Position numbers and translations under genes: made by a program. This document shows positions 5,389-56,072 of a stretch of 64,000 bases of DNA, piece after piece. Numbering within the stretch: the stretch's first letter is position 1; the number at the start of each line of letters is the position of its first letter. The notes below the pieces were generated by a model, which made no database searches, was not told the origin of the DNA, and saw only the letters and a list, made by a program, of their open reading frames with translations. The DNA lies in the NCBI RefSeq assembly GCF_055900595.2, contig NZ_CM148325.1, one strand, 5' to 3'.

Positions 5389-6267
5389 TTAGGCTTGCAG
5401 TTCCAGCCCAGCCAGCCGTCTCCAGTAGCCGTTACAGTCGCTGTTTGCCGTCAACGGGAGTGGTGCAGCGCCATTTTCATTAGCGCGGAAGGCGTCGAGC
5501 ATAGCGAAAGTGTCAGTACCCTGCGGTGACAGGCGGACCACATCAACCAGCCCCTGCATGGATGCCAGCTCGTTACCGAGGTTGTACACGTAGCCGCTCA
5601 TGGTCTGAATGCCATTGAGCACAAACACTTGTTGGTTTTCCTGCGACAGCACGTTGCGCCCGTTCGGATACTTAATGCAGCAGGTTTCACACTCATCTTT
5701 TGGGCGGTCTTCCGAACGCGCGGTAAAGCAGCGGGCGGAGTAGGCCAGCGGCAGATGACCGTAGCTCAAGACTTCCACTTCAAACTGGTTGCGAATGCCC
5801 AGCTCATCGCACTGATTAAGCAGATTCACCAGCCAGTCGCGGGAAAGTTCCACCGGCATACACCAGCGCATCATGCCCTGTTTGAGTAATATTTTCAGCG
5901 TCACCGCGTTGTAGCAGTTCAGCGCGTGTCCGGCGACGAACGGCAGTTTGCGCTCAGCGCACATATTCACCACGCCAAGATCGCTGGCTTCAATCAGAAA
6001 CTCACCGTTCTCAACATAGCGTTTCAGTTCGCCCAGTTCGGAGGATGCCTGCACCAGCGCCAGCGTGGAGAGCACAATCTGCTTGCCACTTCCGGCGAGC
6101 GATTTTGCCATCTCCAGCCAGTCGCCAACTTTGGTTGCCCGGCGTTTGCTACAGACCGCTTCACCGAGATAAATCACGTCTGCGCTGCTGGCGGCGGCCT
6201 GCTGATAAAAATCTTCCAGCGTCTCTTTTGGCCAGTACCACAGCACCGGCCCTAAGGAATATTTCAT
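5389..6267 (-). CDS. ubiV: U32-family protein UbiV (O2-independent ubiquinone biosynthesis; 292 aa)
   Basis: Translation recognised as YhbV/UbiV; start placed at MKYSLGPVLWYW (6267), overlapping the ubiU 3' end by a few nt. Confidence 0.85.
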   Translation of the reverse strand: MKYSLGPVLWYWPKETLEDFYQQAAASSADVIYLGEAVCSKRRATKVGDWLEMAKSLAGSGKQIVLSTLALVQASSELGELKRYVENGEFLIEASDLGVVNMCAERKLPFVAGHALNCYNAVTLKILLKQGMMRWCMPVELSRDWLVNLLNQCDELGIRNQFEVEVLSYGHLPLAYSARCFTARSEDRPKDECETCCIKYPNGRNVLSQENQQVFVLNGIQTMSGYVYNLGNELASMQGLVDVVRLSPQGTDTFAMLDAFRANENGAAPLPLTANSDCNGYWRRLAGLELQA

Positions 6268-35825: not shown

Positions 35826-36995
35826 TTATATTTCATTTAAAAGATCGTAATCATACGTATATTCTTTGCTAATAAAACGACACTCGTTGAAGCTAAATTC
35901 ATCGTCTGAAAAGGAATTGTCAACAGAATCTCTTTCTTCCTCCAGGCTATTATCTGAAAGCAAGTCGTTTGAGTTAGTATAATCTAGGTTGTAATCGACA
36001 GTATAATTAATTTCTGGATTGGTTTGGTAATCATTTTTTTTGACGCAATCATATTCCTCAATAATTTTGTCGATATAATCATATGCTTTTTCTAATGAGA
36101 AGTTTTTCATCTCTGGTAATTTAACTTTGCTCAAATAATTATTAATTTTTGAGGAGTTTTTATATATGCTTTTTGTTAATTCTTTTTCTAATTTGTCTGT
36201 TATATTTGCTGTTGGTATGGATTTTATAATCGCATATCTCATGATTTTTAATTGATCTTCGGTTAAATCTCCAAGCTCATTTAAACAACTTTCGACAAAG
36301 TTGATTTTTTCTCTGGAATAATCATCGCTGATACTTGTTAACGCTGGGGTGATTTTTAATAAAGAATTCCATGAGATAGTACCATTGTGTGTCGAACGCA
36401 TAAAATTTATATTGTACATATTGGTTTTAGTAAACTTTGTTGCAAACAATGTAAAGGGATCTAAAGTCGCGTAAGCCATATGTTTATTTGAAAAATCATA
36501 ACCAGTTAAATCGACGTTATGCAAGTCCAGATAGGATAAATCTATTACGTCGCCTGCTCCAGAGCTAAAGATTACATTTAATCTTCTGATTTCATTGTAA
36601 ATTCCCTCTAATGAACAATTTGTGTTCATGATGTCTGCTGAAATTTTTATGTTATTTAACGGTTCACAAATTATAAGCTTGCAGGTATTGTCTGATCGTT
36701 GCGTTATTTGGGCATTATAACCTAAAAAGTCTATGCGAAGAGACGAGTTATTATAAAGTATTACATTTTTTAAGTATGCTAATTCTTGTTGAAAATCACC
36801 ATCGATAATACATGTTCCACCAGGTTGCAACGCGCAGATTAACGTGAGCATTTGATTAGAAGTCTGTTTTAGTTTTACTACACCTGGTGCTAGTGCTTTG
36901 AGGTCATTTATTATGGGGGTTTCAGGAATGTCATTCATTTTTATACGTACTAAATCATTACCTAAGTCATTACCTATTGATGAAACCGGGAACAT
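35826..36995 (-). CDS. yhaC: Uncharacterised protein YhaC, AT-rich gene (389 aa here)
   Basis: Long ORF with Asn/Ile/Tyr/Lys/Asp-rich composition and low GC; pentapeptide-repeat-like stretch (DLSYLDLHNVDLTGYDFS); acidic Ser/Asp/Glu-rich C-terminus. Confidence 0.8.
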   Translation of the reverse strand: MFPVSSIGNDLGNDLVRIKMNDIPETPIINDLKALAPGVVKLKQTSNQMLTLICALQPGGTCIIDGDFQQELAYLKNVILYNNSSLRIDFLGYNAQITQRSDNTCKLIICEPLNNIKISADIMNTNCSLEGIYNEIRRLNVIFSSGAGDVIDLSYLDLHNVDLTGYDFSNKHMAYATLDPFTLFATKFTKTNMYNINFMRSTHNGTISWNSLLKITPALTSISDDYSREKINFVESCLNELGDLTEDQLKIMRYAIIKSIPTANITDKLEKELTKSIYKNSSKINNYLSKVKLPEMKNFSLEKAYDYIDKIIEEYDCVKKNDYQTNPEINYTVDYNLDYTNSNDLLSDNSLEEERDSVDNSFSDDEFSFNECRFISKEYTYDYDLLNEI

Positions 36996-37794: not shown

Positions 37795-38169
37795 CTATGG
37801 TGACAGTAGAAACGAGGGGAAACGATTGCATTCACAAAATGACGTCCTGTAAGAAGGGTGAAAGTTGATGTTAATCAATTGTTCGAGATGATCAATATCT
37901 GTATTCGAAATTTTAAAACATTGATAAAATAAATGTTTGCCCTCCAACAAATAGCGAGAAAAAATGTGACGTGCCGCATTATTTATCGCTGAAAATGATT
38001 TATTTATAATAAAATTTGATAACTTGCTCATAAAATTTAACTCAAAATTTGCCTGGTAATTATCCGCTAATTGCTTGAAATATGGTCGCAGCTGCTTTTT
38101 TTTATTAACCACATAACGAATGATGTTATCGCCATAAAATATGGTTATCCCTGTCATTTTTTTTGACAA
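37795..38169 (-). CDS. tdcR: Putative threonine dehydratase operon activator TdcR; start codon uncertain
   Basis: AT-rich ORF divergent from tdcA at the position where tdcR lies; in-frame alternative starts at MTGITIFYG and MSKLSNF; the annotated protein may be shorter than the 124-aa ORF. Confidence 0.55.
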   Translation of the reverse strand: MSKKMTGITIFYGDNIIRYVVNKKKQLRPYFKQLADNYQANFELNFMSKLSNFIINKSFSAINNAARHIFSRYLLEGKHLFYQCFKISNTDIDHLEQLININFHPSYRTSFCECNRFPSFLLSP

Positions 38170-38345: not shown

Positions 38346-39284
38346 ATGAGCACTATTCTTCTTCCGAAAACGCAGCATCTGGTAGTCTTTCAGGAAGTCA
38401 TTAGAAGTGGCTCTATCGGCTCGGCTGCAAAAGAATTAGGGTTAACTCAACCCGCCGTCAGTAAAATCATTAACGATATTGAAGACTATTTTGGTGTGGA
38501 ATTAGTGGTGCGGAAAAATACCGGTGTAACATTAACACCTGCCGGTCAATTGTTACTCTCCCGTTCCGAATCCATTACCCGTGAAATGAAAAATATGGTG
38601 AATGAGATAAGCGGTATGTCTTCTGAGGCGGTGGTGGAAGTCTCGTTTGGTTTTCCTTCATTGATTGGTTTTACTTTTATGTCCGGGATGATCAACAAGT
38701 TCAAAGAGGTGTTCCCGAAAGCGCAGGTTTCTATGTATGAAGCGCAACTGTCTTCGTTCCTACCGGCAATCCGCGACGGTCGCCTGGATTTTGCGATTGG
38801 TACGTTAAGCGCAGAAATGAAGCTTCAGGATTTACATGTTGAGCCACTGTTCGAGTCCGAGTTTGTGCTGGTAGCCAGTAAGTCCCGAACATGCACCGGC
38901 ACCACCACGCTGGAGTCGTTGAAGAACGAACAGTGGGTGTTGCCACAAACCAATATGGGGTACTACAGCGAGCTGCTCACCACGTTACAAAGAAATGGCA
39001 TCAGTATTGAAAACATCGTTAAAACCGACTCAGTCGTGACAATTTATAATCTTGTTCTCAATGCTGATTTCTTAACTGTAATTCCTTGTGATATGACTTC
39101 ACCTTTTGGTTCTAATCAATTTATTACTATTCCGGTTGAAGAAACATTACCTGTGGCACAATATGCCGCGGTATGGTCGAAAAATTATCGTATTAAAAAA
39201 GCAGCATCGGTTTTGGTGGAATTAGCCAAAGAGTATTCATCTTATAATGGGTGTAGACGAAGGCAATTAATTGAAGTTGGTTAG
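38346..39284 (+). CDS. tdcA: LysR-family transcriptional activator TdcA (312 aa)
   Basis: Translation recognised as TdcA; N-terminal HTH. Confidence 0.95.
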   Translation: MSTILLPKTQHLVVFQEVIRSGSIGSAAKELGLTQPAVSKIINDIEDYFGVELVVRKNTGVTLTPAGQLLLSRSESITREMKNMVNEISGMSSEAVVEVSFGFPSLIGFTFMSGMINKFKEVFPKAQVSMYEAQLSSFLPAIRDGRLDFAIGTLSAEMKLQDLHVEPLFESEFVLVASKSRTCTGTTTLESLKNEQWVLPQTNMGYYSELLTTLQRNGISIENIVKTDSVVTIYNLVLNADFLTVIPCDMTSPFGSNQFITIPVEETLPVAQYAAVWSKNYRIKKAASVLVELAKEYSSYNGCRRRQLIEVG

Positions 39285-50389: not shown

Positions 50390-51091
50390 CTAGACAGGCA
50401 AATCTATCAGCAAAGCGCGCAGTGGGGAATCGGCAACCAGCGTAATGTTAGCCTCGTCACGAATAAACGCCCCATCACCGCAGGTCAGCGCCGCTTTCTC
50501 TTCATGATGCGTAAGCGCATGAAATTGCCCGTGAATCGATTGCAAATACGCGCGTGGTCCATGCAACTGGAAATTCGCACTTTCGCCTTTGTCGAGCACA
50601 ATATGATGCAGCCATACTTGCTGGCGCAACTGCAGGCTTCCCATCGCCCCCTCTGGCGAGGCGATTAATTGCTGCTTGTCCATATTAAGCGCCAGCTTTT
50701 GAATCAGCGGATTCTCTCGCTGCGGGCAGGCATCCAGCCAAAGCTGCATTCGCGTTAACGGTTTGTCTTTGCTGAGATTGTGTTCGCTATAGCTGACACC
50801 CGGCTGGGTAGAGAGCAGCAACGCTTCACCTGCGTAGGCCTGAATATGATTGCCTTCGCTGTCGCGATACTCAGCTTCTCCATCCAGAATCACATTTAAA
50901 ATATCGACTTTGGGATAGGTTCGTGGCTGAAAGGCGGCACCTGGGGCCAGAACTTCCTGGTTAAGCACACGCAGGGAGGCATAACCTAACAATTTCGGGT
51001 CGAAGTAGTGTCCAAAGGAAAAAGTATACCGGGCCTGCAACCATCCGTAGTCTGCTTGTCCACACTGCCTGGCAGTTCGGGTAGTAATCAT
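50390..51091 (-). CDS. yhaK: Pirin-like cupin protein YhaK (233 aa)
   Basis: Translation recognised as YhaK. Confidence 0.9.
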   Translation of the reverse strand: MITTRTARQCGQADYGWLQARYTFSFGHYFDPKLLGYASLRVLNQEVLAPGAAFQPRTYPKVDILNVILDGEAEYRDSEGNHIQAYAGEALLLSTQPGVSYSEHNLSKDKPLTRMQLWLDACPQRENPLIQKLALNMDKQQLIASPEGAMGSLQLRQQVWLHHIVLDKGESANFQLHGPRAYLQSIHGQFHALTHHEEKAALTCGDGAFIRDEANITLVADSPLRALLIDLPV

Positions 51092-51195
51092 AATTCTTGA
51101 CCTCTCTTTACTTCCTTTTATGGTAAGGGGCTGGACGCTACATTGTTAGCCAGATATTCTGCCCGGTATGTTCAAATTTCCTGAATGAGAACGAA

Positions 51196-52092
51196 ATGGC
51201 CAAAGAAAGGGTATTAACGCTGGAAGCACTACGGGTTATGGATGCGATCGATCGCCGGGGCAGTTTTGCGGCGGCGGCGGATGAGCTGGGACGCGTGCCT
51301 TCCGCACTTAGCTACACCATGCAAAAACTAGAAGAAGAGCTGGATGTGGTGTTGTTTGACCGCTCGGGCCATCGCACCAAATTCACCAATGTCGGGCGAA
51401 TGTTGCTGGAGCGAGGGCGCGTTTTGCTGGAAGCCGCAGATAAACTGACTACCGATGCGGAAGCTCTCGCGCGCGGTTGGGAAACGCATCTCACCATTGT
51501 GACCGAAGCGCTGGTACCGACACCTGCCTTTTTCCCGTTAATTGACAAACTGGCGGTAAAAGCCAATACCCAACTGGCAATCATCACTGAAGTGCTGGCA
51601 GGGGCGTGGGAACGGCTGGAGCAGGGGCGGGCGGATATTGTTATCGCGCCGGATATGCATTTTCGCTCCTCGTCGGAGATCAACTCGCGCAAACTCTATA
51701 CCTTAATGAACGTCTATGTTGCCGCGCCTGATCACCCGATTCATCAGGAGCCGGAACCGTTATCTGAAGTGACGCGCGTGAAATATCGTGGAATTGCGGT
51801 GGCGGATACCGCTCGTGAGCGCCCGGTGTTGACCGTACAGCTGCTGGACAAACAGCCGCGCTTAACGGTGAGCACGATTGAAGATAAACGTCAGGCATTA
51901 CTGGCGGGGCTTGGCGTGGCGACGATGCCGTATCCGATGGTCGAAAAAGATATTGCGGAAGGGCGGTTGCGTGTCGTCAGCCCGGAATCGACCAGCGAGA
52001 TCGATATTATTATGGCCTGGCGTCGTGACAGTATGGGGGAAGCGAAATCCTGGTGTCTGCGGGAAATTCCCAAACTTTTTAGCGGAAAATAA
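51196..52092 (+). CDS. yhaJ: LysR-family transcriptional regulator YhaJ (298 aa)
   Basis: Translation recognised as YhaJ; N-terminal HTH. Confidence 0.9.
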   Translation: MAKERVLTLEALRVMDAIDRRGSFAAAADELGRVPSALSYTMQKLEEELDVVLFDRSGHRTKFTNVGRMLLERGRVLLEAADKLTTDAEALARGWETHLTIVTEALVPTPAFFPLIDKLAVKANTQLAIITEVLAGAWERLEQGRADIVIAPDMHFRSSSEINSRKLYTLMNVYVAAPDHPIHQEPEPLSEVTRVKYRGIAVADTARERPVLTVQLLDKQPRLTVSTIEDKRQALLAGLGVATMPYPMVEKDIAEGRLRVVSPESTSEIDIIMAWRRDSMGEAKSWCLREIPKLFSGK

Positions 52093-53388: not shown

Positions 53389-54375
53389 TTAACCGAAGCG
53401 AACATCTCGTCCATGCGGTTCATCGAGATCCTGCCACGGACCAATTGAAATAATCCCCGTAGGGTTGATGGTCTTATGGCTGCGGAAGTAATGATTACGG
53501 ATGTGATCGAAATTGACGGTTTCGGCAATTCCCGGCATCTGGTAGATATCGCGCAGGAAGCCATACAGATTCAGGTAATCGCTGATGCGGTGCTTATCAC
53601 ACTTGAAGTGGGTCACATACACTGGATCAAAACGCACCAGCGTGGTCCACAGGCGAATATCGGCTTCGGTTAGCTGGTTGCCGGTCAGGTAACGGTGCTG
53701 ACCTAAAATCTGTTCCAGTCGCGCCAGCGATTCAAACACTTTCGCCACCGCCTCGTCGTAGGCTTGCTGGCTGGTGGCAAAACCGGCTTTATACACGCCA
53801 TTGTTAACGGTGTCGTAAATCCAGCCATTAAGTTCGTCAATTTTCGTTTGCAGGGCTGAAGGGTAGTAATCTCCAGCTTTCGCACCCAGCGCATCAAACG
53901 CGGTATTAAACATGCGGATGATTTCCGCTGATTCGTTGCTGACAATGGTGTGGTTCTTCTTGTCCCAGAGTACGGGAACAGTAACTCGTCCGCTGTAGTG
54001 TGGATCGGCGTGGAGATAAAGCTGATACAGAAATTCATGTTGATAGAGCGTATCGCCGGTTGCTCCCGGAAAACTGTCATCAAAGGTCCAGCCGTTTTCC
54101 AGCATTAACGGGTTCACTACGGAAACGGAAATAAACGGTTCCAGCCCTTTGAGTTTACGCATGATCAGCGTGCGGTGCGCCCACGGGCAGGCGAGTGAAA
54201 CATAGAGATGATAACGATCTTTCTCTGCGGCAAAACCGCCTTTGCCAGTGGGGCCTGGCGCGCCATCGGCAGTGAGCCAGTTACGAAATGCGGAAGCTGA
54301 ACGTTGAAATTTACCGCCGGTGGATTTGGTGTCGTACCAGGTGTCATGCCAGACGCCGTCAATCAGTTGACCCAT
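53389..54375 (-). CDS. yqjG: Glutathionyl-hydroquinone reductase YqjG (Xi-class GST; 328 aa)
   Basis: Start at MGQLIDGVWHD (54375) with GGAGGAGAG SD; the ORF-track 448-aa version is an artefactual upstream extension through the tandem repeats. Confidence 0.9.
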   Translation of the reverse strand: MGQLIDGVWHDTWYDTKSTGGKFQRSASAFRNWLTADGAPGPTGKGGFAAEKDRYHLYVSLACPWAHRTLIMRKLKGLEPFISVSVVNPLMLENGWTFDDSFPGATGDTLYQHEFLYQLYLHADPHYSGRVTVPVLWDKKNHTIVSNESAEIIRMFNTAFDALGAKAGDYYPSALQTKIDELNGWIYDTVNNGVYKAGFATSQQAYDEAVAKVFESLARLEQILGQHRYLTGNQLTEADIRLWTTLVRFDPVYVTHFKCDKHRISDYLNLYGFLRDIYQMPGIAETVNFDHIRNHYFRSHKTINPTGIISIGPWQDLDEPHGRDVRFG

Positions 54376-54396
54376 TTTTCTCTCCTCCAATAGCAA

Positions 54397-54780
54397 AAAC
54401 GAGGAGCGTTTCTCCTCGTTTGAGACTGATGGCAAACGCAAAACTGCCTGATGCGCTATGCTTATCAGGCCTACGAGGTTTCTGCAATGTATTGAATTTG
54501 CATGTTTTTGTAGGCCGGATAAGGCGTTCACGCCGCATCCGGCATGAACAACGTGCACTTTGTCAACAATCTGAAACGAGGAGCGTTTCTCCTCGTTTGA
54601 GACTGATGGCAAACGCAAAACTGCCTGATGCGCTATGCTTATCAGGCCTACGAGGTTTCTGCAACGTATTGAATTTGCATGTTTTTGTAGGCCGGACAAG
54701 GCGTTCACGCCGCATCCGGCATGAACAACGCGCACTTTGTCAACAATCTGAAACGAGGAGTGTTCCCCCTCGTTTTTTAT
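54397..54780. repeat. Tandem array (about 2.2 copies) of a 177-bp composite unit: perfect hairpin plus REP pair
   Basis: Units begin at 54397, 54574 and 54751 (partial); each carries aaacgaggagcgtttctcctcgttt followed by REP units (gcctgatgcgctatgcttatcaggcctac…gtaggccggataaggcgttcacgccgcatccggca); the two full copies differ at 3 positions. Confidence 0.8.
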
Positions 54781-54799
54781 CGTTAAGTATAGCGCGTAC

Positions 54800-55192
54800 T
54801 TACCACTTTTTATTCAACAGACGGTCGATGCTATACGCGCCCGGACCGGTAATCGCCAGCAGCAGGAATCCGCCAGAAATAGTCAGGTTTTTCATAAACA
54901 TCAGCGAGTTCATGCCTTCTGCAAAATTGCTGTGAAATAAAAATGCCGTCAGCAGCGTAAAGCCCGCAGTAAACAGGGCAGTGGTACGTGTCAGGAAACC
55001 AAACAGGATTGCCAGACCACCACCAAACTCAAGCAGAATCACCAGTGGCAGCATAAAGCCTGGGACACCCATCGCTTCCATATATTGTTGCGTACCCGCG
55101 TAGCCAGTAATTTTTCCCCAACCTGCCGTAATAAACAGAATCGGCATTAAAATGCGTGCGACCAGTACCCCAACATCTTCTAATTTTTTCAT
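54800..55192 (-). CDS. yqjF: DoxX-family inner-membrane protein YqjF (130 aa)
   Basis: Start at MKKLEDVGVL (55192); ORF track extends to 55282. Confidence 0.85.
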   Translation of the reverse strand: MKKLEDVGVLVARILMPILFITAGWGKITGYAGTQQYMEAMGVPGFMLPLVILLEFGGGLAILFGFLTRTTALFTAGFTLLTAFLFHSNFAEGMNSLMFMKNLTISGGFLLLAITGPGAYSIDRLLNKKW

Positions 55193-55378
55193 CTTACTCT
55201 CCACTGCGCCGCTCAGGCTGCTGATTGTTTTTTTGTGCAAGGGCGCGGTATTAGCGTCGTTGCTTTCGATGGAGAGAATCATAAACGTGGCGAAGCGTGA
55301 TTGTTAGCAAGGAAAACTGTCAAATATTTTCAAAAAATTTGAGGAATAAGGCCGGAATGTCTCCGGCCAGAGAGGAAG

Positions 55379-55678
55379 TTAACCGCGAAGCTGTTGTTGC
55401 TTGAGGGTTGTTTTCACCAGACGCCAGGCGCTCCATACACCAAAACCGCGTCTGGCCCAGCGGACCAGCATATTGGGATGACGAATCGTCCAGATAGCCA
55501 TCACACTACTGCCAACCAGCGCCCAGGAGCGCAGACTCAGCAGCATATTCCAGCGACGATCATAAGCGCCTGTCGCCTCCAGCCATTCACGACGACTGGC
55601 GGAAAGATCCAGCCGTTGTTGCTGGATCTGGCTAAGCAGTTGCGCCTTACGTCGTTCACGTTCGACTTTACTGCTCAC
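55379..55678 (-). CDS. yqjK: Small uncharacterised protein YqjK (99 aa)
   Basis: GTG start at 55678 (VSSKVERERRK), overlapping the yqjE 3' end by 11 nt. Confidence 0.7.
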   Translation of the reverse strand: MSSKVERERRKAQLLSQIQQQRLDLSASRREWLEATGAYDRRWNMLLSLRSWALVGSSVMAIWTIRHPNMLVRWARRGFGVWSAWRLVKTTLKQQQLRG

Positions 55679-56072
55679 GGGACTCCTCCTCGAGCAGTTG
55701 CCGATCGTTTGCCAGCTCATGGCGCGTATGGCGCAGTAAGGTGGATTTACGCGATTTACGTAACGTCCAGATACCGCCAATGAGTGCCAGTAGCAGCAAC
55801 ACCACGGTGGTGGCAATCATCGCATTCAGGCGATATTGCGGATCAACCGCCCAGATAATCAGCACCATCAGGCTCATAAGACCAAATGCAGCGAAAAGCA
55901 TCGTCAGGCCCAGCATCAGTAAAAGCTGAAAGAGATTGGCTTTTTCCTCTTCCAGCTCCACCACCGCCAGCCGCAGACGTGTCTCCACCATTTCAACCAT
56001 GATGGAAACAATTCGCTGCCCGATGCCCAGAACGCTTTTACCGGGCCCTTGCGCGTGATGAGTGTCCGCCAT
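55668..56072 (-). CDS. yqjE: Inner-membrane protein YqjE (134 aa)
   Basis: Start at MADTHHAQGPG (56072). Confidence 0.85.
   Translation of the reverse strand: MADTHHAQGPGKSVLGIGQRIVSIMVEMVETRLRLAVVELEEEKANLFQLLLMLGLTMLFAAFGLMSLMVLIIWAVDPQYRLNAMIATTVVLLLLALIGGIWTLRKSRKSTLLRHTRHELANDRQLLEEESREQ

Follow-up and report, generated by a model that had tools for sequence, protein, structure and literature searches.

A base-resolved map of the YhaJ-controlled yqjF promoter with a candidate activation site

The 186-bp region between yqjK and yqjF in the 64-kb stretch of E. coli chromosome analyzed here (the window, at its full length) is very probably a YhaJ-dependent sigma-70 promoter together with the leader of yqjF. 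Since yqjF lies on the minus strand, positions 55193-55378 are upstream of it. The original prediction was that this spacer is the yqjF promoter controlled by the LysR-type regulator YhaJ, and our analysis supports it as correct; the link between YhaJ and yqjF is itself already known and has been in print since 2016. The addition made here is modest and consists of a promoter map and a candidate activation site.

Locus, regulator and published regulation

We took gene coordinates from the RefSeq annotation of the identical strain Z0117EC0005 and converted them to window positions (Table 1). A 1201-bp query around the spacer is 100% identical to this strain and finds matches in about 5422-5425 of 5426 complete E. 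coli genomes. The converted annotation reproduces exactly the predicted 186-bp spacer at 55193-55378, and it gives yhaJ the same coordinates as had been proposed (51196-52092, about 3 kb away), at a distance of 3.1 kb from the spacer. Gene order around yqjF mirrors that of K-12, and yhaJ is divergent from yhaK, not from yqjF. Annotation, Pfam and comparison with K-12 all indicate that an intact yhaJ gene accompanies the yqjF promoter in the same genome. Its product shares 295 of 298 residues with K-12 YhaJ, retains both domains and matches the YhaJ chains in the PDB (8h58, 8h5a and 9irz).

The regulation of yqjF by YhaJ is well documented. Induction of yqjF by 2,4-dinitrotoluene (DNT) requires YhaJ (Palevsky et al. 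2016, PMC5031710). In the same study, purified YhaJ shifted a probe of ~300 bp from upstream of yqjF, MEME yielded a 16-nt motif of the T-N11-A type containing a TCA-N7-TGA dyad, and single-base changes in the 16-nt consensus removed ~98% of DNT induction (PMC5031710). ChIP-seq peaks of YhaJ were found at yqjF and yhaK in EHEC and UPEC (Connolly et al. 2019, PMC6765310), and occupancy at yqjF is independent of growth condition and YhaJ dosage (2020 mBio paper, PMC7315121). Gel shift, motif mutagenesis and the yhaJ deletion (PMC5031710), together with ChIP-seq and ChIP-PCR (PMC6765310, PMC7315121), bear out the predicted control of the yqjF promoter by YhaJ. These binding and induction data come from the K-12, EHEC and UPEC alleles, and the function of the window allele is read here from its sequence.

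The prediction that DNT breakdown products are the inducers also agrees with the literature, in which the inducer is 2,4,5-trihydroxytoluene or its analogues and not DNT itself (PMC12781885, PMC10562874). Trihydroxytoluene, a metabolite, has been named the likely inducer (PMC12781885), with methylhydroquinone and hydroquinone as inducer analogues (PMC12781885, PMC10562874), and the YhaJ effector domain has been crystallized with methylhydroquinone, which it binds with a Kd of ~11 mM (PMC10562874). The role suggested is the degradation of quinol-like compounds (PMC5031710). The isolated wild-type DNA-binding domain of YhaJ binds C55, an evolved version of the promoter, at very high concentration only (PMC11739112). 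Because of this concentration requirement and the Kd of ~11 mM, the physiological ligand and the binding mode are uncertain, and the original prediction was right to call the natural ligand and the physiological role incompletely defined (PMC10562874).

On the other side of yqjF, the spacer to yqjG measures 424 bp in the window (54376-54799), as against 69 bp in K-12. A 355-bp REP array, absent in K-12, separates the two genes; it consists of two tandem 177-bp REP-containing units, with the array called by TRF at 54397-54775. Rfam gives an ES036 match just above its gathering score and naRNA4-like matches below theirs. Some strains carry an additional 177 bp at this locus (1378 versus 1201 bp), consistent with a third unit. 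The array could affect co-transcription of yqjG with yqjF, and a 448-aa open reading frame at 53389-54735 is yqjG artificially extended through it.

Table 1. Features of the yqjF locus and promoter in the window. The index counts from the first T of the YhaJ box (window coordinate = 55342 minus index).
Feature	Position	Strand	Index	Basis or remark
yhaK, pirin family	50390-51091	-		annotation; Pfam Pirin
Sister site in the yhaK/yhaJ divergent promoter, TCAGGAAATTTGA-N22-CTAACAA, 18 nt, TACCAT	51143-51184	-		pattern search; K-12 anchoring
yhaJ, LysR-type regulator, 298 aa	51196-52092	+		annotation; Pfam HTH_1 and LysR_substrate
yqjG, glutathionyl-hydroquinone reductase	53389-54375	-		annotation; Pfam GST_N_2/GST_C_2
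yqjF, DoxX family, 130 aa, regulated gene	54800-55192	-		annotation; Pfam DoxX, E = 2.5e-21
yqjK-yqjF intergenic region, 186 bp, whole yqjF control region	55193-55378	-		annotation; sequence
Shine-Dalgarno GGAGAG, six bases before the yqjF ATG (55192-55190)	55197-55202	-		sequence
Start-proximal block TCTCTCCATCGAAAGCAA	55277-55260	-	65-82	near-invariant across 79 species
-10 hexamer TATGAT (predicted)	55283-55278	-	59-64	TAnnnT in 79/79 species, nine variants; promoter scan
-35/-10 spacer, 18 nt (predicted)	55301-55284	-	41-58	63 sequences, length constant (79 species)
Weak -35-like CTAACA	55307-55302	-	35-40	78/79 species; promoter scan
Candidate second YhaJ contact ACAGTTTTCCTTG	55320-55308	-	22-34	identical in 71/79 species
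Invariant 21-bp block ACAGTTTTCCTTGCTAACAAT, includes CTAACA	55320-55300	-		cross-species comparison
YhaJ recognition site, 16-nt motif TCAAATTTTTTGAAAA	55327-55342	-		published motif located in the window
Core dyad TCA-N7-TGA, TCAAATTTTTTGA	55330-55342	-	0-12	centre 55336, ~-65 from predicted start; TCA and TTTGA invariant, 7-nt spacer in 18 forms (79 species)
Terminator-like hairpin after yqjK, GGCCGGAGACATTCCGGCC then T-rich tail	55350-55368	-		terminator scan
yqjK	55379-55678	-		annotation

Recognition dyad and conserved promoter layout

The published motif is present in the spacer. The K-12 form, TCAAATTTTTTGAAGA (quoted in PMC11739112 from PMC5031710), and the form in the window, TCAAATTTTTTGAAAA, are identical at 15 of 16 positions; both dyad arms are intact and the sole difference falls outside the core dyad. 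The original prediction had proposed a search for T-N11-A boxes, and a site of this type is indeed present, but the plain search discriminates nothing, with 3913 matches in the window versus 3887 expected. TCA-N7-TGA is likewise not enriched (20 matches versus 16.2 expected). A bare search for either pattern is therefore no better than chance, and the weight of the dyad rests only on its position, its conservation and the composite pattern described below.

Several further dyad matches in the window are recorded here as observations. One TCA-N7-TGA, TCATAATTCTTGA, at 51088-51100, overlaps the yhaK start codon and may be there by chance. An AT-rich dyad, TCATTTTTTTTGA, occurs twice. Its copy at 36031-36043 lies within a minus-strand open reading frame, and that at 38154-38166 is ~180 bp upstream of a plus-strand 312-aa open reading frame (38346-39284), in a neighborhood that by K-12 gene order is presumably the tdc region. 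TdcA, the tdc activator, is another LysR-type protein.

A scan with the YqjF protein gave 80 loci, one per species, from Escherichia, Citrobacter, Enterobacter, Klebsiella, Raoultella, Kluyvera, Leclercia, Lelliottia, Phytobacter, Kosakonia and other Enterobacteriaceae, 79 of which had enough upstream DNA for comparison. We aligned these loci without gaps on the box, taking its first T as index 0. TCA-N7-TGA is present upstream of yqjF in all 79 species, at -150 to -154 from the ATG in 78 of them and at -165 in one. Downstream of the dyad, conserved and variable segments alternate at fixed offsets (Table 1). A MAFFT alignment gives the same picture of conservation, and in it the GGAG before the ATG is invariant.

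The fixed-offset TAnnnT, preceded by a spacer of free sequence and constant length, is the signature of a -10 hexamer. A promoter scan of 54700-55900 returned CTAACA-18-TATGAT as its only match. From this pair, transcription is predicted to start at A 55270 or C 55271. A start at ~55270 in turn would place the dyad centre, 55336, at -65/-66, where LysR-type proteins usually have their recognition site. We deduced the -35, the -10 and the start from sequence comparison, and all positions relative to +1 are predicted; published work was searched for an experimentally mapped start of yqjF transcription, and nothing usable was found.

The leader shows no unusual structure. Rfam finds no matches in 55193-55378, even at E = 1, and folding of the 78-nt leader is not better than that of shuffled sequences (z = -0.26); on these grounds we rejected an RNA element for both spacer and leader. 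We also rejected a 160-aa extended yqjF that would begin at the ATG contained in TATGAT (55282). Owing to the TAnnnT variation of the hexamer, no more than 31 of the 79 species have this ATG, and the annotated start has the conserved GGAG. INRI-seq reports that translation starts in the initiation region of yqjF, on which the start codon and Shine-Dalgarno sequence are marked (PMC9825163).

Candidate activation site, other YhaJ targets and the evolved promoter C55

In classical LysR promoters, such as those of benA (BenM/CatM) and cbnA (CbnR), a T-N11-A dyad near -65 is accompanied by a weaker second site two helical turns downstream that overlaps the -35 element, and the poor -35 makes the promoter dependent on the activator. 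The invariant 21-bp block of yqjF is located where such a second site would be expected. The candidate second contact, ACAGTTTTCCTTG, has its centre two helical turns (22 bp) past that of the dyad, at ~-44 from the predicted start. The 2025 paper on the YhaJ DNA-binding domain uses BenM and CbnR as templates and states that assignment of the recognition and activation sites is still to come (PMC11739112). For yqjF, in contrast to the classical promoters, we propose both an activation site and a shift of the protein in response to effector.

The arrangement recurs at a second YhaJ target. YhaJ binds the yhaK/yhaJ promoter in vitro and in vivo (PMC5031710, PMC6765310, PMC7315121), and this promoter shares with yqjF the order TCA-N7-TGA-N22-CTAACAA, 18 nt, TAnnnT. 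Across the 64 kb of the window, TCA-N7-TGA-N22-CTAACAA, a 42-bp composite, has two occurrences against 0.07 expected; the two sites are PyqjF (55342-55301) and PyhaK (51184-51143), and there are no others. Nearly all species have the composite pattern at both promoters. Of the 80 loci, 69 have a site of the yhaK type at a distance of 2.4-3.7 kb from yqjF, so that linkage of yqjF with yhaJ/yhaK is retained in these, and 5 of the 11 loci lacking the site are truncated. The two promoters also differ. The yhaK/yhaJ promoter is divergent from the regulator gene in the classical LysR manner, while yqjF is regulated remotely, from a distance of 3.1 kb. The yhaK/yhaJ promoter has no CATCGA block, and it is reported to respond only weakly to DNT (PMC5031710).

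We anchored the K-12 YhaJ targets yqjF, yhaK, ybiJ and yhhW on the box in the same way as the species set. At index 22-34 they read ACAGTTTTC (yqjF), GCAGAATAT (yhaK), TCAATTCTC (ybiJ) and TCAATTTTC (yhhW), and the PyhaK counterpart of ACAGTTTTCCTTG at the same offset is GCAGAATATCTGG. A CA(G/A) half-site begins the second site in all four of these forward-oriented targets, at the same offset. A -10-like hexamer follows at index 59-64 in yqjF (TATGAT), yhaK (TACCAT) and ybiJ (GATACT). GCTAACAAT is at an identical offset in PyqjF and PyhaK and is missing from PybiJ and PyhhW, while CATCGA, the core of the start-proximal block, has the same offset in K-12 PybiJ and PyhhW and is missing from PyhaK. 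Two further targets, bssS and yoaC, gave no test of the two-part geometry: the bssS promoter holds one-mismatch near-matches only, including the G-N11-A variant already noted by Palevsky, and yoaC has no box within 420 bp.

A widely engineered biosensor for explosives is built around the yqjF promoter. We obtained the sequence of its laboratory-evolved version C55 from the supplements of PMC8882911 and PMC12781885 and compared it with K-12. Nine changes fall in the aligned promoter, five of them between the dyad and the -10. Two of them, A to T at index 22 and G to A at index 25, convert the second site to TCAATTTTC, the ybiJ/yhhW form, such that the ACAG half-site of yqjF becomes the TCAA of ybiJ, yhhW and C55. 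CTAACA and TATGAT are unchanged, and TTGACA becomes TTGTCA. C55 also carries an A to G change at index 12, the 13th motif base (window 55330), turning TGA into TGG, and this very change at the 13th motif base was reported to abolish DNT induction (Palevsky et al., PMC5031710). C55 thus works despite an arm reported to abolish induction, an apparent contradiction; it is possible that the better second site compensates for the TGG arm.

Because the spacing fits, the half-site is common to four targets and C55 is changed at this position, we read block 55320-55300 as a candidate YhaJ activation site, merged with the weak -35 CTAACA. A broader proposal, which we put forward tentatively and at slightly less than an even chance, is that this block (the ACAG half-site plus GCTAACAAT) is the activation site and forms, with the dyad and the CATCGA block, a fixed three-part geometry of YhaJ promoters across Enterobacteriaceae. 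Conservation of the start-proximal block exceeds what a start site would require. The block may be a third point of YhaJ contact, the site of another factor or a constraint on the initial transcript.

The alternative that survives best is that YhaJ uses the dyad at 55342-55330 alone, and that 55320-55300 and 55277-55260 are kept for another reason, for instance a second regulator or constraints from RNA polymerase or the initial transcript. Published footprints and mutagenesis do not cover these two blocks (PMC11739112), and neither block is universal among YhaJ targets, GCTAACAAT being shared only with PyhaK and CATCGA only with PybiJ and PyhhW. We nonetheless regard it as rather unlikely, given that 55320-55300 is at the LysR activation-site spacing (22 bp centre to centre, overlapping the -35), that the CA(G/A) half-site keeps its offset in all four forward-oriented targets, and that two of the nine C55 changes turn the half-site into TCA.

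Much less probable is a promoter in which TTGACA (55323-55318) is the working -35, so that YhaJ would sit at ~-49, overlapping or adjacent to the -35, and not at -65. TTGACA is a perfect consensus hexamer, and K-12 has CATCAT, a 4/6 match to the -10 consensus, 18 nt downstream of it. However, only 34 of 79 species have TTGAC, the others reading CTGAC, TCGAC, TCTAC, TCAAC or TTAAC; the corresponding -10 partner in the window allele is CACGCT, a 2/6 match; and the promoter scan did not return the pair. With the hexamer mutated to TTGTCA, and hence destroyed, in the improved C55, we rejected TTGACA as the -35. Finally, it is most improbable that yqjF is transcribed mainly by read-through of the yqjK-containing genes, with the spacer acting as a leaky terminator: yqjK and yqjF share a strand 186 bp apart and the T-tail of the yqjK hairpin is interrupted, but strong inducible reporters are obtained with cloned fragments that begin inside yqjK, ~80 bp before the stop codon of that gene (PMC12781885, PMC8882911), point mutations in the dyad abolish induction (PMC5031710), and the promoter geometry is conserved in 79 species.

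The window allele and a proposed mechanism

The window allele is rare among sequenced strains. Identity of at least 99% over the 231 bases at 55170-55400 is found in 16 of 5426 complete genomes, and megablast with the 231-base query matched 3711 genomes, as against 5422 with the longer query; 2497 of the 3711 are at 90-95% identity and most at ~93-94%. It shares with the K-12 promoter the locus, neighbors, -35-like hexamer, -10, Shine-Dalgarno and spacer lengths, and its motif matches at 15/16 positions. Aligned over 231 bases, the two are separated by thirteen substitutions, with a cluster of four in the unconstrained -35/-10 spacer, and by a single 1-bp indel. Eight promoter positions differ, none of which touches the arms of the box, the invariant block, the -35 or the -10; one substitution, A for C at 55265, changes the start-proximal block. 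The stem of the yqjK terminator hairpin is identical in K-12, with a single change in the loop. From this comparison we see no reason to expect altered regulation of the window allele. The YhaJ box in this allele is embedded in a 23-bp near-palindrome, TCAAATTTTTT-G-AAAATATTTGA (55320-55342). As a general feature of the promoter this palindrome was rejected, being allele-specific and not kept across species.

A divergent arrangement of regulator and target is common for LysR-type proteins and is not obligatory. YhaJ serves many scattered targets, as opposed to one adjacent operon (PMC5031710, PMC6765310).

We propose the following mechanism for yqjF. On the minus strand, the yqjK terminator hairpin is followed by the dyad, the 21-bp block, the 18-nt spacer and the predicted -10 hexamer, and then by a predicted start at ~55270, the 78-nt leader, the Shine-Dalgarno sequence and the ATG at 55192. 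The -35 CTAACA would be deliberately weak, in a promoter that is otherwise poor. YhaJ, encoded 3.1 kb away, would be on its site constitutively and would bind a hydroxylated aromatic compound such as hydroquinone, methylhydroquinone or the 2,4,5-trihydroxytoluene derived from DNT/TNT. Effector-bound YhaJ would then activate RNA polymerase as the usual LysR-type tetramer.

The value of this re-analysis lies in a conserved, base-resolved map of the promoter, comprising the dyad, the candidate activation site, the -35, the -10, the predicted start and the start-proximal block. Such a map is said to be missing in the biosensor literature that we searched, and it would allow mutagenesis of the promoter to be rational instead of random. 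The three-part geometry, if true, would account for the improvement of the biosensor by the C55 mutations.
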